From Bacteroidaceae bacterium (GTDB taxonomy: Bacteria; Bacteroidota; Bacteroidia; Bacteroidales; Barnesiellaceae_A): a stretch of DNA of 64,000 bases. Both the position numbers and the translations under genes were made by a program. The notes under the pieces were generated by a model. The model saw nothing but the letters and a program-made list of their open reading frames with translations, was not told where the DNA came from and ran no database searches. This document shows, piece by piece, positions 1 through 31,474 of the stretch (the stretch's first letter is position 1; every line of letters begins with the position of its first letter). The DNA lies in assembly GCA_017522135.1 (NCBI GenBank), contig JAFXAB010000001.1:1043-65042 (forward strand), in the 5' to 3' direction.

Positions 1-129
1 GACAAACTCATCAAATATGTATCCCATATATTCGCCCTTGCCTACGTTTACAGCATACTTACCCGGTAGGAAATTGGGTATTCCTTGTACTGTGTCAGCA
101 TCATATAGACAGAATGGAAAATCTTTCAT
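1..129 (-). CDS. Phage hypothetical protein, partial (MKDFPFCLYDADTV...)
   Basis: ATG at 129 overlaps the upstream stop (ATGA); frame stays open to the window edge. Confidence 0.55.
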   Translation of the reverse strand, partial: MKDFPFCLYDADTVQGIPNFLPGKYAVNVGKGEYMGYIFDEFV

Positions 130-359
130 AATCTTTCTCTCCTTGTTTTAAGTTCTTTTGTTTCGTGGTCGTATATAGCCATTATTTTGGCAGTACCACG
201 ATTTGGGTTATTTCTTATTTCTTCTATCAGAGTTCCTTTGGCATAGTTGATGGCAGCACTCTCGTCAAACTCTTGCCCCAACACATCATCTTCTCTGAAA
301 TCATCTTCGGTAACCCACATTGTTTTAGTTACCACTATGGATACTTTATAACTTTTCAT
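126..359 (-). CDS. Phage hypothetical protein
   Basis: 77-aa ORF coupled to both neighbours in the operon. Confidence 0.7.
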   Translation of the reverse strand: MKSYKVSIVVTKTMWVTEDDFREDDVLGQEFDESAAINYAKGTLIEEIRNNPNRGTAKIMAIYDHETKELKTRRERL

Positions 360-654
360 TTTCGGGATGTTCGTAAACTATTTTATCTACTTTGTTTCTA
401 TAAATCCAAGACCAATTTACGTGTAACCACAAGAGGTTAAACCGGCGAGAGAACTTGCAAAAGTCAAATGGTTTGTACCACCTATGCCAAAGCAGGGTCA
501 AACTTATACCAAATCGCTTTTTATAGGTTGATACGACCACTGTTCCCTTACGGCAATAGTACTTACACTTTTCAAAACTCCAATTCTCGAAACTAATGCC
601 ATCTAAATCTTGCGTTCTTACTTGGTACTCTCCGGGCATTCTGTTCTTTTTCAT
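346..654 (-). CDS. Phage hypothetical protein
   Basis: Likely start MKKNRMPG at 654 overlapping the methyltransferase stop (ATGA). Confidence 0.6.
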   Translation of the reverse strand: MKKNRMPGEYQVRTQDLDGISFENWSFEKCKYYCRKGTVVVSTYKKRFGISLTLLWHRWYKPFDFCKFSRRFNLLWLHVNWSWIYRNKVDKIVYEHPENEKL

Positions 655-1391
655 TTTGCACCTCCTTTCATAAAGCAAATCCAATGAGTGTTGGCACGTT
701 TGCCGGAGATATGCCCGAAGATTGGTTTTGCAGATGTGAGTTTGAGAATTTCCGTTACTTTGATGTCGGTCTCGTTCCATTTGAAGATGAGGAAGCCGCC
801 CGGCTTCAGTACTCGGAAGCATTCTGCAAATCCCTTGGCCAACAAATCACGCCAATCGGAGTATAATGCGCCATACTTGATGTGCTGCCACCCCGTAGGT
901 TTGGTTTTCTCGGACAGGCAACCGTACATATCAGCCATTTTTGATTTCTTTCCACGAGAGTGTACCAAGTGTGGAGGGTCGAACACGACCATAGCAAAGC
1001 TGTCGTCCGGGTAAGGCATATTGGTAAAGTCTGCCTGTACATCGGGTTTGACTTCAAAATGTCGCCCATCACAGAGGGTTGTTTCCACGTCTCTGATGTC
1101 TTGGAACAATACACGAGGGTCGTGTTTGTCGAAATAGAACATCTTGCCGCCACAGCAGGCATCGAGGATTGGTTGCTCTCCTAAATACGTAGGGGCTTCT
1201 GCCCACTGACGTACTGAATGACCGTGCGGAATATCCACCCATTCGCCAAATTCGTTTTTCCAAGCCAATTGAGTGTAGAAGTGGCAGCACCCATCATCGA
1301 CAAGAACATATACGATTTTGCCGTAAGGTGCATCGAATACAGATTTCCACTCTATGCGTGGGAACTGTCGGATTTTATCAAGCATACGCAT
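651..1391 (-). CDS. Phage SAM-dependent amino-type DNA methyltransferase with DUF551-like N-terminal domain
   Basis: SAM-binding ILDACCG motif, catalytic-type VFDPPH motif, ECFRVLKPGG; N-terminus resembles DUF551 (W..V..VLV..W..W..P). Confidence 0.8.
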   Translation of the reverse strand: MRMLDKIRQFPRIEWKSVFDAPYGKIVYVLVDDGCCHFYTQLAWKNEFGEWVDIPHGHSVRQWAEAPTYLGEQPILDACCGGKMFYFDKHDPRVLFQDIRDVETTLCDGRHFEVKPDVQADFTNMPYPDDSFAMVVFDPPHLVHSRGKKSKMADMYGCLSEKTKPTGWQHIKYGALYSDWRDLLAKGFAECFRVLKPGGFLIFKWNETDIKVTEILKLTSAKPIFGHISGKRANTHWICFMKGGAK

Positions 1392-1394
1392 AAC

Positions 1395-1742
1395 TTATTG
1401 TTTTAATAGTTCGGGGTTGTCGTGGATGTTGCCGATGACCTCTACATCTAAAAGCCTATTTTCACTGTGTATTGCAGGAGTAAGGTCAAAGCCTGCAAAT
1501 CCACCACCTGCGCAATAACTCACCTCGTTGATGCTATCTGGGTTATCGTAGCGATATATGTCTCCCTCATAGATTTCCTTTCCGTTCTTGTCAAGTAATC
1601 CTGTGAACTGACCTGCGGTTTCGTTTTCAATGAATATACTAAAACAGCCTTTGCGAATTAGCAAATCATCATCATTATGTATTAGGTCGCCTATATGCCA
1701 CATCCCTGCAAAATCACGCCCTCTAAACTTAATCGTTCTCAT
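1395..1742 (-). CDS. YopX family protein
   Basis: MRTIKFRG start, GQFTGLLDKNGKEIYEGDI and EVIGNIHDNPELL signatures. Confidence 0.93.
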   Translation of the reverse strand: MRTIKFRGRDFAGMWHIGDLIHNDDDLLIRKGCFSIFIENETAGQFTGLLDKNGKEIYEGDIYRYDNPDSINEVSYCAGGGFAGFDLTPAIHSENRLLDVEVIGNIHDNPELLKQ

Positions 1743-2073
1743 CGTTACCTCCTTTCAGCAGTCTTTCGTTCATTTGCTTGATTTCCTTTTTCAAGTGCCG
1801 AACGTGGTTTTTGAGAACTCGGAGAGCAGCAGGATAACTTATGTGATACACTCTTGCCCCTTTGTCAGCAAACTTCCCATTCTCAAAATACGGAATGTTG
1901 ATTTCTATACTTCCGTGTGTTTGATAACTCTTTGGAATTATGTCGGGAACTCTCTCACCTTGCGACTTTACAAATTCTTCCAAGTCTTTTATGATGCTCT
2001 CTGATGTTTCGACCTGTGCGTACAAGTTGTATAATTGTCTGCAATCTTCTTTAGTTATTTCTTTCGCTGCCAT
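1729..2073 (-). CDS. Phage hypothetical protein
   Basis: 114-aa ORF overlapping the yopX start. Confidence 0.7.
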   Translation of the reverse strand: MAAKEITKEDCRQLYNLYAQVETSESIIKDLEEFVKSQGERVPDIIPKSYQTHGSIEINIPYFENGKFADKGARVYHISYPAALRVLKNHVRHLKKEIKQMNERLLKGGNDEND

Positions 2074-2128
2074 ATTGATACAGTTTGTTTGTTATGGAGG
2101 GCGGACGTGCCACCCTCCGTTATTAGTT

Positions 2129-2482
2129 CTACTCAATATCTCGTGGAGTGTCTATCCAATTCTGCACGTCCCAATCGCCAACAACGTTGAGGTTTTCTGC
2201 ACTCTCAATAGTTTGCTTTCTCTTGTCGGACAACAGGTAGTTTCCAAAGTCAATGAGTTCTGCAACCGTAAATTTGGCTTCATCAGAAATCTCAATCGGA
2301 CTGTACGCCTCCTCAAACACATTCTTTGGAGACCAACTTTCGTAACCGTCTGCATAGACAACACGGTATCCCTCACGCCACTCGTGGTTGTCGGTGTTAG
2401 GTCTTGCAACGCCTTTCTGCACTGCATCATACTCGTTCATCGGCTCTGCCGACACGACTTTTGTTCCTTTGTACTTTTTCAT
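2129..2482 (-). CDS. Phage protein with YxGTK...DGYESWSPK..FEEAY domain
   Basis: Conserved phage motif MKKYKGTKVVSAEPM...GYRVVYADGYESWSPKNVFEEAY; ATG at 2482. Confidence 0.8.
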   Translation of the reverse strand: MKKYKGTKVVSAEPMNEYDAVQKGVARPNTDNHEWREGYRVVYADGYESWSPKNVFEEAYSPIEISDEAKFTVAELIDFGNYLLSDKRKQTIESAENLNVVGDWDVQNWIDTPRDIE

Positions 2483-2505
2483 TGTTATAGAATATTTGTT
2501 TGTTA

Positions 2506-2544
2506 GAAAAATGGCAGTGCGGAGGCAGCAGCCCCCACACTGCC
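2506..2544 (-). terminator. Rho-independent terminator after the DGR-target-like gene
   Basis: Minus strand GGCAGTGTGGGGGC-TGCT-GCCTCCGCACTGCC then ATTTTT; the mismatches are G-U wobbles only on the minus strand. Confidence 0.7.
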
Positions 2545-2550
2545 CCTGCA

Positions 2551-3138
2551 TTATCCCTTTGTTTCCTCCGACTTTGGTTTGAAACAGAAGTCGGCATAAA
2601 TCTCGGCGAACTGCCTACCTGCGTAGGCTGCGAGTTTTTCGCTTTTGAAGGCGAGCCGAGAGCCGAAGTTCGTGTACGAGTACGAAGACGCGTCATTCGC
2701 GCCCGCATAAACGAGACCGCAGCTCGCAACCGCACTGTTACCGCCACGACCAACCACACGGCTTTTATCCTTGTCCGACAGTTTGTCGTACTGCTCTTTG
2801 GTGATTAGGTCGTACCAAAAATACCAACGGCGTTCGCCCTTTGTGAATTGAGGCTCCCAACCCTCGTTAAGAGCTGCGGTGATGATGCGGAGTTGGAGGT
2901 ATGCAATCAAATCGTCGCTGTCGGTTGTTACATTGTGCCAATCATCGTACAGCATTTTAGCCTTGTTGTCGCCGTTGGCTGCTCTAACTTCCAACTCGTC
3001 CAAAGCGTCCTCAAACGTCTTGATACGCTCGGTTACGTCCTGTGGCTTTTCATCTACGAGGGTAAGCACACCATCTACCCATTTTACAACTTTCCCTACC
3101 GGGATTTCGATTTCCACTTTCTTTGTCTTGTTTTCCAT
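2551..3138 (-). CDS. Phage protein carrying a DGR variable-repeat-like segment
   Basis: IKTFEDA / ALNEGWEP motifs followed by SRVVGRGGNSAVASCGLVYAGANDASSYSYTNFGSRLAF; likely start MENKTK at 3138. Confidence 0.8.
   Translation of the reverse strand: MENKTKKVEIEIPVGKVVKWVDGVLTLVDEKPQDVTERIKTFEDALDELEVRAANGDNKAKMLYDDWHNVTTDSDDLIAYLQLRIITAALNEGWEPQFTKGERRWYFWYDLITKEQYDKLSDKDKSRVVGRGGNSAVASCGLVYAGANDASSYSYTNFGSRLAFKSEKLAAYAGRQFAEIYADFCFKPKSEETKG
2647..2763 (-). repeat. Putative DGR variable repeat (VR)
   Basis: 39 consecutive codons with no A at the third position; A-free scaffold codons alternate with NNY codons; ends in GSRLAF. Confidence 0.7.
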
Positions 3139-3197
3139 ACTGTTGTTGTTTTTAATTGGTTTGATAAAACTTTTGATAATGATTAAATGTCTCATTG

Positions 3198-3365
3198 CTA
3201 TTTGTTTTTTGGTTCAAAGTCTGGGCACTCTTTCAACTTCTCCTTGTATGCAGGTGGTATCCACCACAAAGGCATATCGGGAGGGTCGGGTAAGTATCGT
3301 TTACACTTATTACGAATGGGGCAGGTAACGCCCGAACAATATGCATAGTCTGTGTTCATACTCAT
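3198..3365 (-). CDS. Small Cys-rich phage protein
   Basis: YCSGVTCPIRNKCKRY...CPDF pattern; likely start at MSMNTD. Confidence 0.65.
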   Translation of the reverse strand: MSMNTDYAYCSGVTCPIRNKCKRYLPDPPDMPLWWIPPAYKEKLKECPDFEPKNK

Positions 3366-3366
3366 T

Positions 3367-4098
3367 TCATTTGTTTGTTGGTTTTCTGAATGATTGCTCC
3401 GCACCGAAATTGATGATGTGCATCATTTCACGGAAGCGGTCGGCAATACGTTCATCGTAATAGGTTGCTATCTCTGCTGCTGAAAGATTGGAAGATACCA
3501 ACGTGCAGAACTGCTCTTCGTAGCGGAAAGAGATAATATCCATTGCCGCAGTTACAAAGTCGCCGTAGTGTATGCTTTCCTTTGGCTCTTGCCCGAGGTC
3601 GTCAATGGCAAGTATCTCAATGGTGCGTAGCCTCTTGAACTTGTACACATCGCTTTCGTTCTCACGTGTGGGGTTGTTGTATGCTTTGGCAAGCAATACG
3701 AGTTCCTTTGCCGTGATGAATATGTAGCCACGTACCGGGTATTCGTCCTGTCGGCTACTCCAAGCCTCATCGGAGCGTAGCAATCCTGTGAGGTTTTGCA
3801 AAGCACGGAGAATGGTTGTCTTCCCATTTCCTGCACCGCCACAGAGGAACAGCCCGAATGTAGAGTCTTGCGATGTGAGCCACTTGGCAATGTCCCACAG
3901 GTGCTGTTTGTACTCTTGCGTTTCGATAAATACACGATGACGACTTGCGACCTCGGCTTTACACGCTGTATAGAGCATTGCATATACCTGTTGAGGTGTG
4001 TATGGCAGTCTAAAACGTGTCGCCGTACGTTTTCGGCTCATCAGGTGAGAGAACATTTCCTCTACGTTGATTTCGTCCTTTGGATTTAGAGTTATCAT
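3367..4098 (-). CDS. DnaC/IstB-like ATPase (helicase loader)
   Basis: Walker A GGAGNGKTT, Walker B LAIDDLG, SSNL...YDERIADRFREM; lies directly after the initiator. Confidence 0.88.
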   Translation of the reverse strand: MITLNPKDEINVEEMFSHLMSRKRTATRFRLPYTPQQVYAMLYTACKAEVASRHRVFIETQEYKQHLWDIAKWLTSQDSTFGLFLCGGAGNGKTTILRALQNLTGLLRSDEAWSSRQDEYPVRGYIFITAKELVLLAKAYNNPTRENESDVYKFKRLRTIEILAIDDLGQEPKESIHYGDFVTAAMDIISFRYEEQFCTLVSSNLSAAEIATYYDERIADRFREMMHIINFGAEQSFRKPTNK

Positions 4099-4807
4099 CT
4101 TTCTCTGTTTTTTTTCTATTCACTATGCGTAACCACGAATTGAAGTGCTGTTTTGCATCTGCCAATGATTGGTGTCCTCGCTCTTTGCCGTCTGCCACAC
4201 ACTGTACCCGAAAATCATCAAGGCTGTTCCGTAGCAGCTCTATTTTCATTGAGTGGAGTACCTGTAATTGGTCGAGCCAACATTCATCTGCTTTCAGTTT
4301 CTCAATCTCTTGGTCAAGCGTTAGCGAATATGGTTCGTAACGTGGTGGTGTGTCTTGTTTATCAGTCTCTTTTTTCGGTTGATTGTTTGCCTGCCTATGA
4401 TTACGTGGTTGTCTTGGGGCTTGCTGTGCAAGCAGACTGTAATCTGTGATTTTACACACTCGGCGGCATTGAATACATATACGACTGTATCTCTCTTGAA
4501 TACCCTTTGATGTAAGCACTCCCTCCGCATCGAACAAATCCTTTGAAAACAACCCGAGTGACAGGCAGGTCTTTATAACCTCCAATACATACGCCTCGTC
4601 AAAGCCCGTCAGTTCCGAGCAGATGAAAGGCAACTCTTCGTCCCACTCAATGTAATACCCATTCTTGTAGATGTTACAGAGCAGCAGAGCATATATCGAA
4701 ATGGCTTTACCACCTTGATACTTGATTAGTTTCCTTATCTTTATGTCGCTGAAAATATCTATATCCATCGGAAAGTATTCCAGCCCTTTTTTTGAAGTTC
4801 GTGCCAT
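4010..4807 (-). CDS. DUF4373 (Lin1244/Lin1753-like) phage replication initiator
   Basis: MAR..KKGLEYFPMD...IYKNGYYIEW...LTSKGIQERY N-terminal domain. Confidence 0.85.
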   Translation of the reverse strand: MARTSKKGLEYFPMDIDIFSDIKIRKLIKYQGGKAISIYALLLCNIYKNGYYIEWDEELPFICSELTGFDEAYVLEVIKTCLSLGLFSKDLFDAEGVLTSKGIQERYSRICIQCRRVCKITDYSLLAQQAPRQPRNHRQANNQPKKETDKQDTPPRYEPYSLTLDQEIEKLKADECWLDQLQVLHSMKIELLRNSLDDFRVQCVADGKERGHQSLADAKQHFNSWLRIVNRKKTEKDDNSKSKGRNQRRGNVLSPDEPKTYGDTF

Positions 4808-4813
4808 AGAGAG

Positions 4814-5272
4814 TTAATCGTTTTTCAAATAATCGTCCACCTCACGTTTGAAATCGTCAAAGGAACGACACACCACATATTTGTACTCGCTGTCAGCACA
4901 GACGATGTTCTGCCATTGCTTTTGGCTGTCTCGCTGTCTGCCTTTGAGAGTTTTCATTTCAATGAGCAAAGCACCGTAGTCCCGGTTGCTTTTCAATAGG
5001 ATGAGGTCTGCCACCCCTGCCACAACTCCCTCGGCTTTCAGTTTTGCCGCCGTAGTAGCATCACGCCTGCCACCATTAGGAACGGCGAACAGTCTGCCGT
5101 GAAGCCTGGGATATTGGAGGGAGAACCACCGCACACACGCACATTGTATGCGGTGTTCCTCATCCTTGTGTACCTTTCGAGTTTTGACAGCGTTCTTTTT
5201 AGCCATCAACTCATCGAAAGTCATTCTATTCGCTGACATTGCTTCAGCGATTGTTACTTTACTTTTCGTCAT
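4814..5272 (-). CDS. VRR-NUC domain nuclease
   Basis: EHRIQ..FAVPNGG.R..LKAEGVVAGVADL..IEMKT..Q..SQ. Confidence 0.9.
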   Translation of the reverse strand: MTKSKVTIAEAMSANRMTFDELMAKKNAVKTRKVHKDEEHRIQCACVRWFSLQYPRLHGRLFAVPNGGRRDATTAAKLKAEGVVAGVADLILLKSNRDYGALLIEMKTLKGRQRDSQKQWQNIVCADSEYKYVVCRSFDDFKREVDDYLKND

Positions 5273-5705
5273 ACTTTGCAGGGTAATAATCCAATATCTG
5301 TGTCTCGACAATGGAAACTATTTCGTAATCTGCCATTGTTCCTTTCATACCCTCAATGAAGCGGTCGTATGCGTTCTTGAAGTCCGAAGCCTGTACGAGA
5401 ATGAAACTGTTGGTCTTTTTCTCGGCTCCGCTCTTTTCGTCAAGGGTGATGAAAGAAACCTTTATTTTGTAGTAGCGGTCTGCCGACACATCTTCGGAGA
5501 GCATCAGTTCTGAAATACGAGGCTTGACGATTTGGGGAATGCTAAACTCGCCACTGATGTAGGGTTTCAGTTCCTCGATAGTTCTTGCCTCTGCCTCTGT
5601 GAACGAGAGCGCATCAAAAAGATACTGTTCGCTTACTGTCTTGTTGAGTCCGTTTTCCATTGTCTTTTCGTAGCGGACTGTCGAAAGGAAATAGTTTACC
5701 ATCAT
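5259..5705 (-). CDS. DUF4494 family protein
   Basis: VRYEKTMENG..YLFDALSFTEAE..DEKSGAEK..MKGTMADYEI..ETQILD. Confidence 0.9.
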   Translation of the reverse strand: MMVNYFLSTVRYEKTMENGLNKTVSEQYLFDALSFTEAEARTIEELKPYISGEFSIPQIVKPRISELMLSEDVSADRYYKIKVSFITLDEKSGAEKKTNSFILVQASDFKNAYDRFIEGMKGTMADYEIVSIVETQILDYYPAKYDEK

Positions 5706-5983
5706 TCTTTCAAGTTCATACGGTTTTTCAATTCTTTGCTTAACACGAGTTTGGCGGTGCTCTGTGCCGGAATGCTGACAACAGTACCCTTGCTGATGTT
5801 GCGAGCCTTTTTAGGGGCTGTGGTAACTGCCTTGATTGTTGCAAAGCCACGAATGAACACACTCTCACCCTTTACGAGTGAACTGCTGATAGCCTCTACC
5901 ACGCTTTCGGTGGCGGCGATTGCCTGCGAACGACTTAAAGTCGTGTTGTTGATTACGTAATCAACGATGTCATTTTTCTTCAT
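5702..5983 (-). CDS. HU family DNA-binding protein (phage-encoded)
   Basis: IRGFAT..KKARNISKGT..IPA HU/IHF signature. Confidence 0.9.
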   Translation of the reverse strand: MKKNDIVDYVINNTTLSRSQAIAATESVVEAISSSLVKGESVFIRGFATIKAVTTAPKKARNISKGTVVSIPAQSTAKLVLSKELKNRMNLKE

Positions 5984-6149
5984 TTTGAACTGAATTAAAG
6001 GTGAATAATTTCTTTTCTAACTTCTTTATCATTTGTCGTATAACCCACGCACGACAGTTGTTGCGTTGTCCGGGCAGGGTGTTATATACTTTGGCAGCAT
6101 CATCGAAATACTTGATAATCTTCTGCACGTCTGTTTTGCATATATCCAT
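5970..6149 (-). CDS. Small phage hypothetical protein (59 aa, MDICKTDVQKIIKYFDDAA...), below the ORF-track cutoff
   Basis: Hand-translated; start coupled to the helicase stop (TAATG) and fills the gap to HU. Confidence 0.65.
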   Translation of the reverse strand: MDICKTDVQKIIKYFDDAAKVYNTLPGQRNNCRAWVIRQMIKKLEKKLFTFNSVQNEEK

Positions 6150-7585
6150 TATCCCGATGTGTTGAGGAAGAGATTAACCAACTCATCGAAGTACATTTCA
6201 TCGGTTGGTATATCATCGTCCGAGTTCATTATTTCACTCGCAATAGATTTCTTGCGATGTATGAGGTTGTAAATGGTGTGGTCGATTGTGCCACGTCCGA
6301 GCAGGTAGTAACAGGTTACGTTGTCTTTCTGACCTATGCGGTGCGCTCTGTCCTCACATTGGCAGCAGTCGGCATACGTCCAAGCCAATTCAATGAATGC
6401 CACGTTTGATGAGGCTGTAAGTGTCAGCCCCACTCCGGCAGCTTTGATTGAGCAGATGATGAGGTTTACATCGGGGTTGTTCTGGAACGCATCGACAGAT
6501 GCCTGTTTGTTTACCATACTATCACGTCCTGTAACCGTTACCGCACGAGGGAACACCTTTTGCAGTTCGTCCACAATCTCGTGAAGCGAGCAGAACACGA
6601 TGAGTTTCTTTCCGCTGTCGAGGAATGTGCGAATGAAGTCCACTGCCTGCGCTATCTTGCCTTTGGTGGCCAAGGAACGCAACGTCATAAAGCGAACAAG
6701 TGCTTCCATACGCATTTTGCGGCGTATCTCCCAATCGGTACACTCGGTGTACTCCTGCAAGTATGCGGCAAGGTCGGCGGCAGCAAGGTTGTATTCCTTA
6801 TCATTGGAAATCTCCACGTACAAGTCCACTCGTGTTTTGTCGGGCAACTGCGGCAGCACCTTTGCTTTCTCTCGGCGTATCATACAGGTATCGTATAACT
6901 GCTTTGAAAGAACAGACAGAGGTACGGCAGGAACGGCGGTCTTGTCTTTGGGGTCGGTGCAGTAGTCTGCCATAAACTTGGCACGTCCTCCAAACTCGCC
7001 TATGCGGTCCAATATGGAGAGTTGGGTGATTAAATCTTCGGGGCGATTGACAACAGGTGTACCCGACAGGAGTATGCGGTATTCCTTGCCAACGGACAAA
7101 CCTTTTGTGAAGATTGTCTGCTGTGCGGAGGGGTCTTTTACACGGTGGCTCTCATCTATGATGATTGATTTGAACTGCTGCATCTGCGGACAGAACACAA
7201 CGTCTTTCAGTCGGAACTGCTTGCCGCCCTTGATGTCCCACACGAAGTATTTGCGCAGGCTCTCATAATTGACAATGGCGACCTGATGCACGCCCATTGA
7301 GAGGAGATAACCCCACGTGGTGCGGACGTTATTGTCAAGCACAAGTGCGCTCTTATCGGTGAATTTCTCGAACTCACGTTGCCAATTGATTTTGAGCGAG
7401 GACGGACAGATAACGAGGCAGGGGTATGCTCTTGCTGTATCGACTATGCCAATGCTCTGCAATGTCTTGCCCAATCCCGGCTCATCGCCGATGATAATGC
7501 GCTTATGCTCCAACCCGAAGCAGATGCCCTCACGTTGGTATTCGTAAGGCTCGACACGCAGATTATGTTTCAGTATATTGTTCAT
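6149..7585 (-). CDS. SNF2-family (SMARCAL1/HARP-like) helicase
   Basis: GDEPGLGKT, IIDESH, LSGTP, GVGLTLT, QCEDRAHRIGQ. Confidence 0.93.
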   Translation of the reverse strand: MNNILKHNLRVEPYEYQREGICFGLEHKRIIIGDEPGLGKTLQSIGIVDTARAYPCLVICPSSLKINWQREFEKFTDKSALVLDNNVRTTWGYLLSMGVHQVAIVNYESLRKYFVWDIKGGKQFRLKDVVFCPQMQQFKSIIIDESHRVKDPSAQQTIFTKGLSVGKEYRILLSGTPVVNRPEDLITQLSILDRIGEFGGRAKFMADYCTDPKDKTAVPAVPLSVLSKQLYDTCMIRREKAKVLPQLPDKTRVDLYVEISNDKEYNLAAADLAAYLQEYTECTDWEIRRKMRMEALVRFMTLRSLATKGKIAQAVDFIRTFLDSGKKLIVFCSLHEIVDELQKVFPRAVTVTGRDSMVNKQASVDAFQNNPDVNLIICSIKAAGVGLTLTASSNVAFIELAWTYADCCQCEDRAHRIGQKDNVTCYYLLGRGTIDHTIYNLIHRKKSIASEIMNSDDDIPTDEMYFDELVNLFLNTSG

Positions 7586-8022
7586 TACTTAAAGTTCTCT
7601 ATCTCTGTGATTAAATCTTTTTTATCTATCCCTTTGAGGTACTTGTATAGCACAAGGTCGATGCACTGATTGTAGAAGCGTTCAAACTCGTGTTGTTCCA
7701 TTGCCGAGAATGATATGCTTTGGTATTCTATCTCCTTTTCGCCTCGTTCGTTGAGGCTTGTTTTGAAGTAGCCCAAGTCTCGCTTGAAGCGGCGCAGCAT
7801 ATCTTCCTCATTGTGGACTTTGAAATATTCTGCAAGGTTGGACGGCAGGTTGTCAAACGTGATGCGCACCAATGCAAAGAACTTCTTGTGATGTTCGTAG
7901 TTGCGAGGGTTGCTAACCTTGCACTTGACAACAGAGCCGACACGTAGCCGTTTCTTCAAGTCGTAGTCGCTATCATAGAGCGGCACAAGACCGTGAGCCG
8001 TTACCTTGCAGAATATATCCAT
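7585..8022 (-). CDS. DUF1367-like phage protein
   Basis: PRNYEHHKKFFAL...SISFSAMEQHEFERFY. Confidence 0.8.
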   Translation of the reverse strand: MDIFCKVTAHGLVPLYDSDYDLKKRLRVGSVVKCKVSNPRNYEHHKKFFALVRITFDNLPSNLAEYFKVHNEEDMLRRFKRDLGYFKTSLNERGEKEIEYQSISFSAMEQHEFERFYNQCIDLVLYKYLKGIDKKDLITEIENFK

Positions 8023-8027
8023 AGGGC

Positions 8028-8249
8028 TTATTTTAAGTCATCTGCTGATGCTATCGCAATAGCGATTAGCGCAATTCGTACTTCTACTGCGTCTGCTCCA
8101 AACTTCTTGAAGTCCATTGATATTGGAGCCTTTGTAAGTTCAGCCCAACGCTCATCTGTCAATTTTTCCCTCATCAACATCATTGTTCCGACTACTTCGT
8201 CTCTGTCAAACTCGACTTCGAGTTTCATTTTCTTGTTTTCTTCTGCCAT
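8028..8249 (-). CDS. Phage hypothetical protein
   Basis: 73-aa ORF fitting the operon. Confidence 0.65.
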   Translation of the reverse strand: MAEENKKMKLEVEFDRDEVVGTMMLMREKLTDERWAELTKAPISMDFKKFGADAVEVRIALIAIAIASADDLK

Positions 8250-8259
8250 AATTCTTTGA

Positions 8260-8934
8260 TTATAAATTGTTGTTAGTTACAGGTGGGCATAAGCACCAAT
8301 ATTGAAATGCCAATTCTTCGTATTTCTCACGACCACGATTATAGACCTCATCGCCACGATTTATGAACTTCTTGAATATGCAGCAGTTCTTTTTGCTGAT
8401 GGCGTAGATGAAATCACGGTTGCTCTTTGCGATGTCCATATACCAGGCACGACTCCTGTCCCAATCGAAGAAATCAACAGCTTCCTCGAACTGTTGCTGT
8501 GTGGCGGCGAATGTTGTTTTGAGGTCGCCACCGAAGCCACCGAGCCACCAATCCCATTTGCACCGGGTATCGAGCGTGAACGGAAATTCGCAGTATGTGA
8601 ACTGCTGTGCCTTATTGACCATAAAGCGTTGCGTTTCGGCGCATTCAAGAACTTTGGCAAGGAACGCATCTTTGCGTGCTTCCATACGGAGAGCCTTTTG
8701 CATTTCCTGTGCGTGTCGGAACTCATCTTCTGTGTATGGCACATCGTCCACTGTTAGGCGGTAGTAGTCCACCTTTGACGGCTCTGTGATGATGGCATCG
8801 ACCAACGAGCCGAAGCGGAACGCCGCCTCTTTGTCTCCGAACTGCATACGTGGGTGTAAGATGTTTTTCAGTTCGGTGAGGTCAGAGTTACTGACCTCAC
8901 TTCTGCTGTAATAATTATCGCTCATAGTAATCAT
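8260..8934 (-). CDS. PD-(D/E)xK exonuclease (RecE/ExoVIII-like)
   Basis: YY...VSNSDL, FGSLVDA, RCKWD, DLKTT motifs; close to RecT; start likely 8934 or 8925. Confidence 0.75.
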   Translation of the reverse strand: MITMSDNYYSRSEVSNSDLTELKNILHPRMQFGDKEAAFRFGSLVDAIITEPSKVDYYRLTVDDVPYTEDEFRHAQEMQKALRMEARKDAFLAKVLECAETQRFMVNKAQQFTYCEFPFTLDTRCKWDWWLGGFGGDLKTTFAATQQQFEEAVDFFDWDRSRAWYMDIAKSNRDFIYAISKKNCCIFKKFINRGDEVYNRGREKYEELAFQYWCLCPPVTNNNL

Positions 8935-9226
8935 CGTAATCTTCTTCGTACTCAACCTCGCCGACACCATCACACACTTCGCAGGTCTCCTTTTCGCCTC
9001 GTATGTAATGTTGTCGCTTGGCTTCTGCTTCTTCCTCTGTCTCGGGGAGACACAACCACGTTTCTTCTGTACATTCGGTCTCTTCGTTTGTCTCGAAGTT
9101 GTAGGCGTGCCAATGGCAACCTTCACCGTTACAGGCTTCGCATTTTACATAGTGAGGCTCTTTCTCGTTCCACGGCGCACGTGGGTCGTGTTCTGCTCCG
9201 GGTGGGTAGTATCCGCTTTCGTACAT
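8915..9226 (-). CDS. Phage zinc-finger protein (two CxxCxGxG motifs)
   Basis: YPPGAEHDPRAPWN, CEACNGEG, CEVCDGVG. Confidence 0.75.
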   Translation of the reverse strand: MYESGYYPPGAEHDPRAPWNEKEPHYVKCEACNGEGCHWHAYNFETNEETECTEETWLCLPETEEEAEAKRQHYIRGEKETCEVCDGVGEVEYEEDYDDYYER

Positions 9227-9228
9227 AG

Positions 9229-10422
9229 TTACTTTGCTTTTACGTCCTCGACATATTCCACACTCTCATCGCTGATGTACGTTCCCTCTTTGGCGAGTTT
9301 TTCACAGAATGTTATCTGCTTCTTGAACATCTTGGTGAGTTCCTCAACAGAGAGGTGGCAACCCTCCTTGCTCCACCACATAGAGAGAATAGGCATAATG
9401 CCCTCGGGATTGAGCAGGTTGATTTTCTGTGCAACCTTTACCTTTGGTTGGTAGCCGGAGGATACGACTGCTTGCTGACCGAACAGGCTTTCCATTTCGG
9501 ACTGCTGACGTGCCATTTCTGCCTTCTGCTTTTCCTCTTCCTCCTTGCGGCGGCGTTCTGCCTCCTGTTCCTCGGCTTCCTTGCGCTGACGTGCTTCCAT
9601 TTCTTCCTTGATACGTGCAGCTTCCTCGGCTGATGCCTGTGCCATACGTTCGAGGTTGGTTTTCTTGGACGGCAGACGGTCGATGATGTACTGCTTTGTG
9701 CTGTCTATCTCGAACTCGTATTGCTCCTTGAACTGCTTGGCAAGGCGTTCCTTTGTCTCAATCTCTGCCTTGCGTATCTCATCTACTGTTATTCCGGCAG
9801 GAATGCGAATAAGGGTGTGCAGGTTGTAGAGGAAGTCGGCAGGAAGTTCCGTTGAATAGTCCTTAACCTGCTTGAATGATGCTTCGTAGTTGTCGAGGGT
9901 AACGGCATTATCAATGGCAGTCAGAGCGTTGCAGTCTCTGTTCACAAGGGATTGGAACTGCTGTTTGAAATCGTCCTCGATGTCCTGTCGCATCTTGGTA
10001 CGTGCCGCCTCTGCCTGTTGGCGTTCGTACTCCTTACGGCGGCGTTCCTCCTCATCGGCACGTTTCTTGGCGGCGAACTTATTGCGGAACTGTTGTAACT
10101 TGAATGGTATTGTACCTTCTTTGGTAGGGTCGATGGCATTCTCCATTACTGTGAACTCCTTGCGGATTGTGTCGAACAGTTGGGTAACAGGCGCACGGCG
10201 TTCGTTCATCTTCTTGACGGTCTTGCGTGCTTTCTCAATGTACTGTGCCGCACGTTGGTCGAGTTCGTCCGTCATTCCTCCTTGCACAATGGCATCGAGG
10301 ATTGCTTTCCCGGCAGCTTCGCAGTTCTCACGAGATAGTTTGTTGTCCTTATAGGACTGTGGAGCGGCAGACACAATAGTCTGTATATTCTCCTGCTTGA
10401 TAATTGCTAATTCCTGTGACAT
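9229..10422 (-). CDS. Phage coiled-coil protein of the recombination module
   Basis: 397 aa, E/K/R/A-rich coiled coil, between RecT and the exonuclease. Confidence 0.8.
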   Translation of the reverse strand: MSQELAIIKQENIQTIVSAAPQSYKDNKLSRENCEAAGKAILDAIVQGGMTDELDQRAAQYIEKARKTVKKMNERRAPVTQLFDTIRKEFTVMENAIDPTKEGTIPFKLQQFRNKFAAKKRADEEERRRKEYERQQAEAARTKMRQDIEDDFKQQFQSLVNRDCNALTAIDNAVTLDNYEASFKQVKDYSTELPADFLYNLHTLIRIPAGITVDEIRKAEIETKERLAKQFKEQYEFEIDSTKQYIIDRLPSKKTNLERMAQASAEEAARIKEEMEARQRKEAEEQEAERRRKEEEEKQKAEMARQQSEMESLFGQQAVVSSGYQPKVKVAQKINLLNPEGIMPILSMWWSKEGCHLSVEELTKMFKKQITFCEKLAKEGTYISDESVEYVEDVKAK

Positions 10423-10434
10423 AGTTGTATGGGG

Positions 10435-11385
10435 TTAGAATGTGTCGTCTGCATTGTCTGATTGCTGTGCAGGGTCGATTGTTACACCTGCGGACATATC
10501 GGGTGCAGGTGCGAAATGCTGTTCCTGCTGTTGAGGCTGCTCTGTTCCAACACCGCCGTATGGGTCGATGTCTGTCTGTTGTTGCTGCTCGATGATTTCA
10601 GTTTCGAGAGCGGAGCCACGACCGATATTCAGTTTCGGGTAGGTCTTGAAAGCGTGCTTCACGCACTTTGCCATAAGGAAACCTGTGTCTATCTGACCGT
10701 CTTTGTTGTAGAGTTCGTTAGGCTTAACTACATATTGACGTGTCTTGCTGTCGAAGTAGGTGTTCTGCTTGTCGCTGTAACCTTTGAGGCGCATCCAATC
10801 CTGTTCAGTCATCACAGAATAGTCTATCGTACCATCGGCACGTGTAATCTTCAAGAAACAGGCAATAATCTTGTTGGACTTGCGAGGGAAAGCGGACATA
10901 TAGTTCACTATCTTTTGTCCGTTCTGTTCGCCGTATTGGAATGTGTCGCCCTCGTACACGATTACAGGATTGTCGGCGTGGCGTATCTGTCCGGCATTCT
11001 TGCGCAGCACTAATTCGCCATACCCCGAAATGGTAAGGTTGCAGACTTTCTCCCAAATGTCGTTGCCTTGTTGGTTTGTGCCTACCTTGACATTGCGAGG
11101 AATGAGGTAACAGAGTGCCTGTGCGCCCGGTGCAAGGGTAAGTCCCTTTACAGCAAGGTCAATAAAGGCATAGAAGATTGATGTACCAGAGCATTCACGC
11201 AGGTTGGCTTTGTCTCTCAACTGTTGGTTGAAGTAGATTGCTTCACGCTCGTACACCTGTTCTCCGCCCTCTTTCCAAATGGAGTTATAGACGTTGATGA
11301 ATTGACTACGGACACGCTCATTGCGTATCACATCGGTTGCTTTTGTCTGTTGCAACTCTTGGGCTAATGATAATGCATTGCTCAT
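10435..11385 (-). CDS. RecT-like single-strand annealing protein
   Basis: GLTL..CYLIP..ISGYGEL..VYEGDTF..MAKCVKHAFKTYPK; acidic tail ending DDTF. Confidence 0.82.
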   Translation of the reverse strand: MSNALSLAQELQQTKATDVIRNERVRSQFINVYNSIWKEGGEQVYEREAIYFNQQLRDKANLRECSGTSIFYAFIDLAVKGLTLAPGAQALCYLIPRNVKVGTNQQGNDIWEKVCNLTISGYGELVLRKNAGQIRHADNPVIVYEGDTFQYGEQNGQKIVNYMSAFPRKSNKIIACFLKITRADGTIDYSVMTEQDWMRLKGYSDKQNTYFDSKTRQYVVKPNELYNKDGQIDTGFLMAKCVKHAFKTYPKLNIGRGSALETEIIEQQQQTDIDPYGGVGTEQPQQQEQHFAPAPDMSAGVTIDPAQQSDNADDTF

Positions 11386-11426
11386 AATGTAAATAATTAA
11401 AGTTATTGAAATACAGTTGTCTGTTG

Positions 11427-11511
11427 TGGGAGTGACAGGATTTGAACCTGCGACCTGCTGCTGCTTGCCATTTGGGTACGTACCGCCGCTCTTCCGCTGA
11501 GCTACACTCCC
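11427..11511 (-). ncRNA. tRNA-like RNA / pseudo-tRNA with aberrant anticodon domain
   Basis: GGGAGTG/CACTCCC acceptor stem, TA-GCTC..GAGC D arm, AGGTC, GCAGG-TTCAAAT-CCTGT T arm, A73, no encoded CCA; 30 nt instead of 17 in the anticodon region. Confidence 0.75.
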
Positions 11512-11516
11512 TTATG

Positions 11517-11789
11517 TTATATCTTGAAATAGTCCTGTTTCACGTTCTGTAAAGCTCTCAACTCTGCCGTGCGGTACTCGACTTTGCCGGGACGTTTGCA
11601 AGGCTCTATCTTGCCCTCTCTGCGCCATCTATCGACATTGCCACGTCCGAACATCGTGTATGCCTGTCGTTGGCTGACTGTCTCGGGGTCGTTGCGTACT
11701 TCGGAGAGCATACGCACTACCGAAGCGGCAACATCGTGGATGAACGTCTCATAGGTAACTGACTTATCGGAAAAATCGAGTGTGAGCAT
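11517..11789 (-). CDS. Excisionase-like/HTH DNA-binding protein
   Basis: SQRQAYTMFGRGNVDRWRREGKIEP..GKVEY winged-HTH pattern. Confidence 0.7.
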   Translation of the reverse strand: MLTLDFSDKSVTYETFIHDVAASVVRMLSEVRNDPETVSQRQAYTMFGRGNVDRWRREGKIEPCKRPGKVEYRTAELRALQNVKQDYFKI

Positions 11790-11793
11790 AGAT

Positions 11794-11934
11794 TTACTTT
11801 TTATTGGTTTGACTTTGACACGCAGGTGTCTTGTCGTACTCTACATTTCGTTTGAGCAGGGTGCAGTAGCGACCATTCAACTGCTCATAGGCTTTTGCAC
11901 ACTTGGCGCAAATGGGATTGGTATGTGATGCCAT
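11794..11934 (-). CDS. Small Cys-rich phage protein
   Basis: CAKC..NGRYC..VEY..PAC; ATG at 11934. Confidence 0.6.
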   Translation of the reverse strand: MASHTNPICAKCAKAYEQLNGRYCTLLKRNVEYDKTPACQSQTNKK

Positions 11935-11936
11935 AG

Positions 11937-12164
11937 TTAGAATATGCTTAATTGATGACCACGTTTCTTTACTGTGCGTTCGTAACGCTTGCACGTATCT
12001 TTGAAAGGACAGTTGCCGGACTTGGCTTGCTGATAGGCGGAATGAAAGGTGTCCCAATCCACACCACGAAGAAATCCCATCAAGTCCATACAAAACCAAC
12101 CTTTATCCATTGATTTGTTCTCGCCTGTAATCTCGACAAGTCCGTTGCCTTTTGGTGTTCCCAT
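11937..12164 (-). CDS. Phage hypothetical protein
   Basis: 75 aa, coupled start, CPFKDTCKRY, ends QLSIF. Confidence 0.7.
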   Translation of the reverse strand: MGTPKGNGLVEITGENKSMDKGWFCMDLMGFLRGVDWDTFHSAYQQAKSGNCPFKDTCKRYERTVKKRGHQLSIF

Positions 12165-12427
12165 TATTCAAATAGATTAAAATCTAATTTCACATCTTCT
12201 GCTTGTCCTCGCATAACTTGGTAGGTAGTCGGAACAAGTTTCCTCTTCTGAAGGATATATCTTGTCGTTAATTGTATCTGTGCCACTGCTTGCGTTCTGT
12301 CATTCGGCAGCATCCATTTGGGGTGGTTATGTATGGTCCGAATGATTGCACTGGCTACCACCTGTGCGGCGTATAGGAAACCCTCATTGAAGCCGCTATC
12401 ATACTTTTGCATTTCTTCCTTTGTCAT
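12164..12427 (-). CDS. Phage hypothetical protein
   Basis: Translationally coupled ORF. Confidence 0.65.
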   Translation of the reverse strand: MTKEEMQKYDSGFNEGFLYAAQVVASAIIRTIHNHPKWMLPNDRTQAVAQIQLTTRYILQKRKLVPTTYQVMRGQAEDVKLDFNLFE

Positions 12428-12939
12428 TGCTGTTCTTTCTGATATTGTTCTACTTTTGCTTTCAGTCTCGCTTCTGCCAATGCAACACGTTCCTTTGCGA
12501 ACTCCACCTTTGCACGAATTTTCTGCAATGCAGGGTCTGTGGCTTCATCAAAGAATAAGTTACCTTGATTGGCTTTGATGTATGCTGCAACCCTGTTCTC
12601 CTGCAATGTGATTTTACTCTTCAATGCCACGAGCTGCGACAGGTCGCTTCTAAATCCGTACTTCTCACCACTTGTCTTGTCATAGAAAGACATAGTGGTG
12701 TAGATATAACTTCGAGGGTCTGCACAGACAAACTTTGCTTTGCGCCAATCAATTACCCATTGCCAACGCTCTACACTTTCACGTGGAAGGTCGTAACGAT
12801 GCAGCACGACCTCTTTTCCGTCCACCTTCTTGCAGATTAAGATTGCGACATACGCTTTAATGCTTAATTCTTTCTCTGCTTTGGCGTATGCCTTTGCGAG
12901 TTCTTGAAACTCTGCACCGATACCAACCTCCTGTGCCAT
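12424..12939 (-). CDS. Phage hypothetical protein
   Basis: 171 aa, RYDLPRE..RWQWVIDWR, C-terminal coiled coil. Confidence 0.75.
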   Translation of the reverse strand: MAQEVGIGAEFQELAKAYAKAEKELSIKAYVAILICKKVDGKEVVLHRYDLPRESVERWQWVIDWRKAKFVCADPRSYIYTTMSFYDKTSGEKYGFRSDLSQLVALKSKITLQENRVAAYIKANQGNLFFDEATDPALQKIRAKVEFAKERVALAEARLKAKVEQYQKEQQ

Positions 12940-12942
12940 TGC

Positions 12943-13140
12943 TTACTTGTTTTTCTCTTGTTGATACTCACGATAAGACTCGCGTACAAGTACCCACATC
13001 AAAAGGGCGAATAACAGAACTACGAGGAGACCGAATAAACCGATTGTGCCTTTGATGAGGTGAGCAATGCCCCAAGTGATTGTTCCGAGGAACATAAAGA
13101 CTGACATTGCAAGTTGGCTGAGGCTCATAAACTTATCCAT
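12943..13140 (-). CDS. Small two-TM phage membrane protein
   Basis: Two hydrophobic helices and a charged tail. Confidence 0.65.
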   Translation of the reverse strand: MDKFMSLSQLAMSVFMFLGTITWGIAHLIKGTIGLFGLLVVLLFALLMWVLVRESYREYQQEKNK

Positions 13141-13147
13141 AGTGATA

Positions 13148-13372
13148 TTATTTTGATGTTGAAAATTCCTCCACGACTACAAATCTCTCAACCTTTACAG
13201 GGAAATCCGGCTCACCGTCAAACTCATTGTTCAGTTTGGCACACAAATTCATATTCTTGTGTGAACGGTCGAGGTTTACATCACAGAGTAATGAGCCTTT
13301 GGCAGTCTGAAAAACCTCACGACCAAACGAGTCAAAACCGATACTCTTAATCTCAATCTTATTCATAATCAT
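13148..13372 (-). CDS. Phage hypothetical protein
   Basis: GFDSFGREVF..LCDVN..FDGEPDFPV. Confidence 0.7.
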   Translation of the reverse strand: MIMNKIEIKSIGFDSFGREVFQTAKGSLLCDVNLDRSHKNMNLCAKLNNEFDGEPDFPVKVERFVVVEEFSTSK

Positions 13373-30088: not shown

Positions 30089-31474
30089 ATGGCCACGAGT
30101 GGTAAGTATGGCAAGTATTTGAGGAGTCTGATAGTTGCAGGTGACTACATTTGTATCAATGTAGCCTATCTGACTGCATGTGCTGTATTCAACTTTTACC
30201 CCGACTTTTACAATTATTTGGTTTGGGCTTTTATCAACATATCATATATTCCTGTATCATCTATATTTTCTGATACACACAATCAACGCATTATTTATGC
30301 CAATCATATAGTTTACAAAGCATTGGAGAGCACACTCTCTCATGCCATTATCTTCGTTGCCCTACTCTTCTTCTCTAATAATATCGACAAAATATGGGTT
30401 AAGCAGATAGTAACAATATATCTTATTATGGTCGTAGTCATGCCTATATGGTGGGTGGTTGCTCGTAAGATATTGAAGTTCTATCGCAGCAAGGGTTATA
30501 ACTTTCGCAAAGTTATTATTGTAGGATATGGACGTAGTGGCAAACTGTTGGAAAAGGAGTTGCAGTCGGATGCCGGTTATGGATATAAGATTATGGGCAT
30601 TTTTGACGACAACCCTGCAGTTGCATCAACCACAACTCATTACAAAGGCACTACATCGGAGGTAGAGGCATTTGCATTGAAAAATTATATTGATGAGATA
30701 TATTGTGCCTTGCCCACTACAGCCGAAGAAAATATAATGAGTCTCACCCGATTTGCCGAGAAAAACGTTATCCGTTTCTTTATCATACCCAGTATGACAC
30801 CCTACCTACACCGTCGCTTACACTACGATAGTCTGGGTAGTGTTCCTATCTTGAGTATTCGCCCCGAGCCTTTGGAGAATCCGTTGAATGCAGCCATCAA
30901 GAGAGTGTTCGACATACTTTTCTCCGGCTTATTTCTACTATTCTTCCCGCTGATACTCATACCTATCGCCATTGCCATAAAGATATCATCGCCAGGGCCT
31001 GTTTTTTTCAAGCAGAAACGCACCGGTTTGCGTGGAAAGGACTTCTATTGCTATAAATTCAGGACAATGCGTGTAAATGATGCAAGCGACCAACAACAAG
31101 CAACCAAAAACGACCCTCGCAAAACAAAATTGGGCGATTTCTTGCGTAGAACAAGTATAGATGAGTTGCCTCAGTTTTGGAATGTGTTCAAGGGTGATAT
31201 GTCGGTTGTGGGTCCTCGCCCGCACATGATAAAGCACACAGAAGACTACTCAAAGCTCATTGATACCTACATGTTGCGCCACTTGGTCAAGCCCGGCATT
31301 ACCGGATGGGCACAGGTAAATGGGTATCGAGGCGAAACAAAGGAGCTGTGGCAAATGGCCAAACGTGTGCAGTATGACGTATGGTATATTGAGAATTGGG
31401 ACTTCTTCCTTGACTTGAAAATCATCTATCTCACTATCACCAATGCCATACGCGGTGAGAAAAATGCTTATTGA
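30089..31474 (+). CDS. Undecaprenyl-phosphate glucose phosphotransferase (WcaJ-like)
   Basis: KRVFD, YKFRTM, SIDELPQF, VVGPRP, KPGITGWAQVNGYRG. Confidence 0.92.
   Translation: MATSGKYGKYLRSLIVAGDYICINVAYLTACAVFNFYPDFYNYLVWAFINISYIPVSSIFSDTHNQRIIYANHIVYKALESTLSHAIIFVALLFFSNNIDKIWVKQIVTIYLIMVVVMPIWWVVARKILKFYRSKGYNFRKVIIVGYGRSGKLLEKELQSDAGYGYKIMGIFDDNPAVASTTTHYKGTTSEVEAFALKNYIDEIYCALPTTAEENIMSLTRFAEKNVIRFFIIPSMTPYLHRRLHYDSLGSVPILSIRPEPLENPLNAAIKRVFDILFSGLFLLFFPLILIPIAIAIKISSPGPVFFKQKRTGLRGKDFYCYKFRTMRVNDASDQQQATKNDPRKTKLGDFLRRTSIDELPQFWNVFKGDMSVVGPRPHMIKHTEDYSKLIDTYMLRHLVKPGITGWAQVNGYRGETKELWQMAKRVQYDVWYIENWDFFLDLKIIYLTITNAIRGEKNAY

Follow-up and report, generated by a model that had tools for sequence, protein, structure and literature searches.

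The gene at positions 2551-3138 on the minus strand of the window, which is the whole 64,000-nucleotide stretch of Bacteroidaceae DNA analysed here, is very likely the remote variable repeat (VR) target of a DGR. A sequence-only reading of the region had proposed a DGR located elsewhere in the prophage, and this is borne out: all 13 mismatches between the VR of this gene (VR2) and the template repeat (TR) of near-identical relatives fall at TR adenines, and these relatives carry both the TR and the reverse transcriptase (RT). The target gene is a further case of the published Quimbyvirus/LoVEphage-type layout, in another phage lineage.

Codon signature of the target gene and its template in relatives

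The target gene encodes a protein of 195 aa in the phrog_11581 family (function unknown; profile match E 6e-45 over residues 29-191). Its conserved scaffold, N-terminal and helical, is followed by the VR towards the C-terminus and then by a tail. Homology to phrog_11581 and to the Quimbyvirus-type second DGR target extends over its full length. No Pfam family was found in a scan of the 195-aa protein, and an NCBIfam scan gave no match either. A longer ORF starting from an upstream ATG at 3195 (214 aa) is disfavoured, as MENKTKK forms the start in 38 of 38 close homologs.

The minus-strand codons of 2763-2647 translate to SRVVGRGGNSAVASCGLVYAGANDASSYSYTNFGSRLAF. None of these 39 codons ends in A, compared with 26% of the other 157 codons of the gene; by hand arithmetic, 39 such codons in a row are expected at the background rate with a chance of 0.74^39, or about 1e-5. 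The base A accounts for 12% of 2647-2763 and for 34% of the rest of the target gene. When we re-read the minus strand, the codons quoted in the sequence-only reading, the lack of codons ending in A and the GSRLAF end were all exact. The roughly 30 residues said to follow the VR were counted as 31 residues C-terminal of GSRLAF, and the claimed lack of a signal peptide agrees with a hydrophilic N-terminus free of any signal-peptide-like stretch, as judged by eye rather than by a predictor.

The VR2 core occupies 111 nt at 2653-2763 (minus strand, residues 126-162) and is homologous to the TR of relatives. The reference for the comparison was the TR of the IMG/VR relative G001 (L034:5497-5607), which has 111 nt with 27 A and 84 non-A bases. 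All 13 mismatches of VR2 hit the 27 adenines, and the 84 remaining bases are unchanged (Fisher p 7e-10). Ten related loci compared with the TR display 16-19 mismatches at adenines and 1-3 elsewhere. A chance or compositional artefact, in which a codon-biased segment rich in Gly, Ser, Ala and Tyr has no connection to a DGR, could appeal to the missing RT and TR in the assembly and to nothing else; it is refuted by these adenine-specific TR/VR alignments and is hardly credible.

The TR next to the RT in the near-identical IMG/VR relatives G001, G002 and G004 translates to SRVVGRGGNNANANYGLVYANANNASSNSNTNNGSRL. A template predicted from the VR2 codons by the earlier reading, beginning with RVVGR and ending with GSRLAF, nearly matches it. 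The RT of the IMG/VR relatives has about 450 aa (open frames of 452-453 aa; an ORF of 450 aa in G001), and the TR is located just upstream. The order in G001 is a 1771-aa tail protein (phrog_14959) with a C-terminal VR (VR1), then the TR, then the RT. No Avd-sized ORF (at least 70 aa in a plausible frame) was present between VR1 and the TR of G001. A DUF4376-like ORF of 158 aa follows the RT in G001, and a DUF4376 protein follows the RT in the phage BT-TP2 too. A cognate TR beside the RT, with core mismatches only at A, was found in LoVEphage, G001, G002, G004 and BT-TP2, and up to an indel in G003. All seven records of at least 64% completeness, full genomes included (LoVEphage, BI-TP1, BT-TP2 and G001-G004), have an RT, and none of 14 fragments of 13-58% completeness does.

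The VR2 3' end at 2647-2652 (minus strand) reads GCCTTC. This VR-specific end is common to VR2 and the tail-protein VR1 of relatives, and the TR has ACAATC instead, an asymmetry of the IMH versus IMH* type. The difference between IMH (VR) and IMH* (TR) decides the direction of homing in the BPP-1 model, and by analogy the GCCTTC/ACAATC difference would set it here. The BPP-1 paradigm comprises a TR RNA, error-prone cDNA synthesis and replacement of the VR by the cDNA. In the near-identical phages one TR, located between the VR1 tail protein and the RT about 15 kb away round the genome, feeds both VR1 and VR2. On the BPP-1 model the RT would insert random bases opposite adenines when copying the TR RNA, and the cDNA would then replace the VR, the direction following from the VR-specific GCCTTC and the ACAATC of the TR. 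In this way about 14 codons (AAY, TAY and ACG) could each come to encode up to 15 different residues, while the scaffold stays constant.

Two hairpins accompany the gene. A short one at 2613-2628 (minus strand; 6-bp stem, 4-nt loop) is intragenic, lies 18 nt past the VR end and is a possible DGR target-recognition element. The DNA of 2580-2665 on the minus strand folds with -19 kcal/mol (z -3.47), none of 200 shuffles being equally good, and the same is seen in the relative at locus L020. The post-VR hairpin is kept in close relatives and absent in LoVEphage, where the fold after the VR is nothing comparable (z -0.71); that after VR1 of G001 is weak (z -1.56). A terminator-like hairpin with 14 pairs, a 4-nt loop and then a T run is located at 2513-2544 (minus strand), 6 nt past the stop codon, and given this position the target gene is the last of its transcription unit.

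Split prophage and alleles across samples

Searches for the cassette in the genome itself were negative. No RT was matched by a profile search (PF00078) of the 64-kb window and of the whole 2.1-Mb assembly, which consists of 56 contigs and is 88% complete. No TR was found by a repeat search in the window or by BLAST of 2600-2800 against the own genome, and in an adenine-tolerant ungapped scan of the 56 contigs the best non-self score, 121/170, was background. The nucleotide search for a TR that had been proposed with the earlier reading is therefore empty in this assembly and positive beside the RT in relatives. The statement that RT and TR are lacking nearby holds for both window and assembly; it reflects an assembly gap rather than a biological absence.

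The gap can be traced. Positions 1-13369 of the window (C15:1043-14411, minus strand) belong to an integrated prophage of about 65 kb and form its early arm, as revealed by blastn to G001 and G002 with 91-99% identity over about 14 kb. G001, G002 and G004 share 94-99% DNA identity with the early arm. The match extends to base 1 of contig C15, so that the arm leaves the contig start 3.6 kb beyond the target gene. Another contig of the same assembly matches G001:12707-41028 with its bases 1-28238 (C45), and the integrase at the end of this match adjoins the host gene for pyruvate phosphate dikinase (PPDK). Nothing in the own assembly corresponds to G001:41029-62933 (about 21.9 kb), the region with the VR1 tail protein, the TR and the RT. 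The assembly lacks RT and TR because the prophage is split over C15 and C45 and the cassette-bearing 21.9 kb or so were not assembled or binned. Loss of the DGR from the prophage had also been entertained and was dropped after the C45 match and the 21.9-kb gap at the cassette region of the relatives were found.

Two contigs of run X1 bear on the gap. A contig of 10,034 nt ends within a repeat copy that agrees with the TR at 12 of the 13 sites of mismatch (site 2667 is missing from the displayed rows) and is accompanied by the TR downstream flank. A second contig, of 2,544 nt, contains the TR end, a spacer and then VR1 in its tail-protein context. Note that X1 is a possible source sample and so does not count as independent evidence; since the own assembly has neither element, the RT/TR pairing for this prophage rests on the relatives and on these contigs. 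Depth over 2646-2763 rises 4- to 9-fold in runs X1, X5 and X7 because TR- and VR1-type copies pile up there. The cassette is very probably present in this prophage and its repeats broke the assembly. Breakage of assemblies by repeats is also mentioned in passages of Benler 2021 (PMC8008677).

The public contigs list 25 variable positions in 2646-2763, 20 of them at TR adenines and the other five from contigs of other copies. The same VR allele as in 2653-2763 was found in runs X1, X2 and X3, which belong to three studies, with 0.99-1.00 of the words. Run X10 has the same gene with 13 differences, all within the VR, and at most one elsewhere, and alleles thus turn over between samples. No second VR2 allele in the gene context was found within X1 in the Logan contigs, which drop rare variants.

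These data also bear on whether VR2 is a relic, once written by a DGR but now static owing to a lost or inactive cassette or to failing recognition of VR2. The own assembly without RT or TR, the identical allele in runs of three studies and the single allele of X1 would all fit a relic. It is nevertheless very unlikely, as drift would be expected to leave differences at the 84 non-adenine bases of the relative's TR, where there are none, and as the VR-type 3' end GCCTTC and the ORF are intact. Moreover, X1 has TR- and VR1-bearing contigs, X10 has another VR2 allele of the same gene, and what the MAG lacks is exactly the stretch that holds the cassette in relatives.

Hypervariation among homologs and the predicted structure

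A total of 6930 relatives of the target protein were found at E<=0.001 among 90% clusters, and the best 120 were listed. The alignment was made from 38 of the top 39 homologs, all of 195-196 aa and with 87-100% identity; P0035, of 213 aa, was left out. Outside residues 126-162 the mean entropy of the 38 homologs is 0.075 bit, with about 99% conservation of the scaffold. Entropies above 1 bit occur at 14 positions, 13 of which are located on TR codons carrying adenine, namely 134, 135, 137, 139, 140, 144, 146, 148, 149, 153, 155, 157 and 158. The fourteenth is residue 123, outside the VR. For TR codons with A at position 1 or 2, 564 of 570 alignment cells contain a residue reachable through adenine-only change. 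Hypervariability at TR-adenine codons, with AAY-reachable residues, is hence a property of the population in the 38-sequence alignment.

One position departs from the template. Residue 145 is S rather than A in 18 of the 38 homologs, which the TR of G001 does not account for, and our guess is a TR polymorphism. The same VR-centred pattern of variation was found between the homologs of LoVEphage and BI-TP1. The outcomes named beforehand as speaking against a DGR target were related phages with neither TR nor RT and homologs that are invariant or vary without adenine specificity; neither was observed.

The family is large: among clusters at 50% identity, 1244 representatives match at E<=0.001, of which 503 reach E<=1e-10, and nearly all are 110-260 aa long. 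Conserved motifs around the VR include R38, K40, T41, D44 and A45, the stretch A79...N91-E92-G93-W94-x-P96, L162, and L169-A170-x-Y172...Q176-F177. The VR columns of 71 divergent members contain mostly Y, N, S, D and G.

The AF2 model of the target protein (mean pLDDT 82.9, pTM 0.74) opens with a beta-hairpin and three helices and ends in a helical hairpin; the VR in between is poorly defined. Residues 129-138, 140-144 and 156-158, all in the VR, have pLDDT below 50. A Foldseek search of the model against the PDB gave no match at E<=0.001, and VIA-align against 48,161 chains returned helical look-alikes only (best Z 4.3). The look-alikes in BFVD are uncharacterised family members only, some labelled crAss-like, and the ESM Atlas search gave unnamed viral clusters only. 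Pentatricopeptide matches from a profile search against PDB sequences were judged spurious, being sums of weak repeats. None of these searches recovered a CLec fold or another known fold. Passages of Benler 2021 (PMC8008677) call the DGR targets of Quimbyvirus CLec, and a CLec fold is plausible for the target protein. A Pfam scan found no effector fusion in the target protein or in ten longer relatives (236-362 aa). Two clues to fused forms, Tad2-like (19.9 bits, cut-off 25) and DUF5886 (17.1 bits, cut-off 36.5), came from one relative each and were set aside.

Genomic context, candidate functions and known systems

The target gene is surrounded by non-structural genes of replication and DNA modification, distant from the RT cassette. 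Directly upstream on the same strand, 3367-4807 encodes a DnaC-like helicase loader (3367-4098; phrog_50, E 3e-25) and a replication initiator (4010-4807; phrog_2562, E 5e-41; Lin1244_N). Further upstream genes on this strand encode VRR-NUC, DUF4494, an SNF2 helicase, NinB and an exonuclease VIII-like protein. The same-strand genes downstream encode YopX, two unknown proteins and, 1.2 kb from the target gene, a DNA methyltransferase (651-1391; phrog_954, E 3e-70; Methyltransf_11). In three phage lineages the family gene is found in early surroundings or near genes of replication or modification. The early, non-tail location that had been pointed out as unusual is thus real, though already published for Quimbyvirus/LoVEphage and others.

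From the early replication and modification neighbours, the lack of a signal peptide and the operon-ending terminator, we tentatively read the product as a putative intracellular binder of variable specificity that may act in phage-host conflict, in counter-defence or host takeover. To our knowledge, the phage DGR targets studied so far are almost all tail proteins that bind receptors. A hypervariable product encoded amid genes for replication and DNA modification suggests that targeted hypermutation has a second use, inside the cell. With slightly less confidence still, the whole family may be a phage-encoded 'adaptive' intracellular binder, far larger than reported, with a binding face rewritten by a DGR that also retargets the tail. 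If so, a phage could sample sequence variants that act on targets in host defence or takeover.

The shared template could also suggest a virion-associated accessory for host recognition, such as a second adhesin or tail-fibre partner, in which VR2 diversifies host binding as VR1 does. VR2 and VR1 are written from one TR and would form the same kind of surface, and residues 123-167, alone in the protein, give matches to the very C-terminal ends of tail-protein PHROGs (phrog_5302, 1e-5; phrog_14959, 7e-9). In runs X5 and X7 a copy in tail context is letter-identical to VR2, though it may be an assembly artefact; exact-pattern scans of viral contigs and metagenome contigs for such a copy gave no match. 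However, the similarity to the tail protein is confined to the 41 residues of the VR, and VR1 differs from VR2 in G001, G002 and G004. The neighbourhoods in the three lineages, with the BT-TP2 gene directly after a cro-like regulator, and the lack of a signal peptide also argue against a virion accessory, which we regard as unlikely. The letter-identical copy also prompts a bolder proposal, homogenisation of VR1 and VR2. In that case the soluble protein could share the specificity of the tail tip and serve, for instance, as decoy, receptor blocker or chaperone.

Lower in probability, and in our view quite unlikely, is a sensor or superinfection-exclusion factor that protects the lysogen by recognising proteins of incoming phages or mobile elements. 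The target gene has its own terminator, and a role as antigen sensors in conflict systems is proposed for bacterial DGR targets (PMC10907252). Nevertheless, the gene is co-oriented and contiguous with lytic replication genes, and a fused effector domain is absent both from the protein and from its 10 longer relatives. The rest of the probability goes to a function other than intracellular binder, virion accessory or lysogen sensor.

The BPP-1 target Mtd is a tail-fibre receptor-binding protein that adjoins its cassette and has a solved CLec fold. The system described here has in common with it the adenine-specific flow from TR to VR, an AAY-rich TR and a C-terminal VR. Unlike Mtd, the target here is remote, non-structural by context and continues for 31 residues past the VR.

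The closest published layouts come from gut phages. Passages of Benler 2021 (PMC8008677) describe Quimbyvirus with a frameshifted RT in three overlapping ORFs and with two VRs, one of them beside tail fibre genes; they propose a role of the second target in phage-host conflict and leave its function open. Dahlman 2025 (Nature, PMC12629997) describes, in the passages concerned, 'double variable repeat' DGRs in four prophage species and cites Benler 2021 for LoVEphage. These double-VR prophages have the same arrangement as here. Quimbyvirus would be the same phage as LoVEphage, judging from this citation and the matching neighbourhoods rather than from sequence comparison. A conflict role for the LoVEphage/Quimbyvirus homolog is raised in passages of PMC8008677 and PMC12629997, which test it in neither case. 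For LoVEphage, the passages of Van Espen 2021 (PMC8525569) mention no more than an RT next to the tail collar fibre gene, and according to passages of Roux 2021 (PMC8144416) that survey was unable to detect remote DGR targets. No functional test of this second DGR target came up in the article listings and passages searched.

Named phages with a homolog are LoVEphage, BI-TP1, PV4-TP1 and BT-TP2. In tblastn searches with the target protein the LoVEphage homolog gave E 8e-14 to 4e-19. The LoVEphage homolog (MW660583.1, 33613-34197, annotated 'hypothetical protein') has 35-37% identity over 76% of the query. It is about 190 aa long, with the VR near the C-terminus and then a conserved tail of about 30 residues. 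One TR serves both the tail-protein VR and the homolog, the RT is about 14 kb away beside the tail collar fibre gene, and every core mismatch of the homolog VR is located at an adenine of the RT-side repeat. The homolog sits among DNA methyltransferases and other nucleic-acid enzymes, in line with passages of Benler. The prophage analysed here differs in being a separate lineage of about 65 kb and in having the RT as one 450-aa ORF, whereas that of LoVEphage is in two frames.

What is new here is the size of the family, the cognate TR in at least three lineages including the cultured BT-TP2, the IMH-type asymmetry common to both VRs, and the explanation of the stranded VR in this MAG. Among the phages checked, the family goes together with a tail-protein VR from the same TR. 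Its presence in cultured, inducible Bacteroides phages (BT-TP2, BI-TP1, PV4-TP1 and LoVEphage) makes it testable at the bench. DGR cassettes are lost from MAGs because VR/TR repeats break assemblies, which is a lesson for annotation, and the codon signature by itself is still enough to recognise a stranded remote VR.

The B. thetaiotaomicron phage BT-TP2 (PQ571279.1) has the closest named relative of the target protein, with 50% identity. It likewise encodes a giant protein with VR1, a TR, an RT and a DUF4376 protein, and the core differences between its VR2 and TR are only at TR adenines. Its VRs end with GCCTTC and its TR has GCAAAC. Unlike the prophage here, it has a 45-kb genome in which the target gene is located about 2.6 kb from the RT, directly after a cro-like HTH gene. 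This gene is unannotated in the BT-TP2 record because it spans the terminally redundant record ends.

Variation in the target protein

The early prophage protein of 195 aa encoded at window 2551-3138 (minus strand), a target of the DGR, displays some variation that is not explained by the template repeat (TR) of G001, an IMG/VR relative of the prophage. At residue 145 (window 2704-2706), Ser replaces Ala in 18 of the 38 close homologs, and this position is a GCG codon in the G001 TR, i.e. a non-adenine site. The TAC codon 140 is replaced by Gly in three of these homologs and by Ile in one. The TR of G003, another IMG/VR relative, has TCG at the position of codon 145. TR polymorphism between strains probably lies behind these exceptions.

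Relatives that are 75-78% identical diverge from the window sequence almost exclusively within 2875-3010 (residues 43-77; DALDELEVRAANGDNKAKMLYDDWHNVTTDSDDLI versus DACRELGSDHPFVKAYDGYVSHIHQHDMNDYDLV). On sequence comparison this block looks like a swapped cassette within the scaffold. Contigs from two public sequencing runs, X5 and X7, also break at window 2875-3010. A longer member of the family, P0149 (244 aa), possesses an N-terminal extension, of which residues 40-71 give a sub-threshold match to the Tad2-like (Thoeris anti-defence 2) domain, with an E-value of 0.0011 and a score of 19.9 bits, below the cut-off of 25.

A copy identical to VR2 in an apparent tail context

One contig of 11,234 nt, matching window 2646-2762, is common to X5 and X7, two runs from two studies. 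Its depth is 50 in X5 and 28.5 in X7, versus about 10 and 5, respectively, for the contigs of the early gene. The contig carries a TR-like copy that shows 20 differences when compared with the window VR. A second copy lies 126 nt past it and has no difference from VR2, the variable repeat of the early gene; a tail-protein-like flank comes after this second copy. Either mis-threading in the de Bruijn assembly produced this arrangement, or VR2 and the tail-protein repeat VR1 are identical in that population, through gene conversion or a shared cDNA.

Surroundings of the RT and division of the prophage

In both the G001 (L034:7200-7676) and BT-TP2 (L044:5395-5889) lineages, the DGR RT is directly followed by a DUF4376-like protein some 160 aa long, which might serve as the accessory factor for this DGR clade. 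No Avd-sized ORF was found between VR1 and the TR. In BT-TP2 (PQ571279.1), the homolog of the target gene (L044:8001-8363 plus L045:1-320) lacks annotation because it runs across the ends of the record, which is linear and terminally redundant; a cro-like HTH gene directly precedes it, and only about 2.6 kb separate it from the RT.

The integrated prophage of about 65 kb is divided between two contigs of the assembly, C15:1-14411 (window 1-13369) and C45:1-28238, with its 21.9 kb middle absent from the MAG. The integrase gene is located at C45:26499-27923, and a host gene for pyruvate phosphate dikinase begins at C45:28206. The host DNA of the window contains an inverted repeat of 67 nt with 79% complementarity (31155-31221 and 34919-34985), its arms lying 3.7 kb apart.
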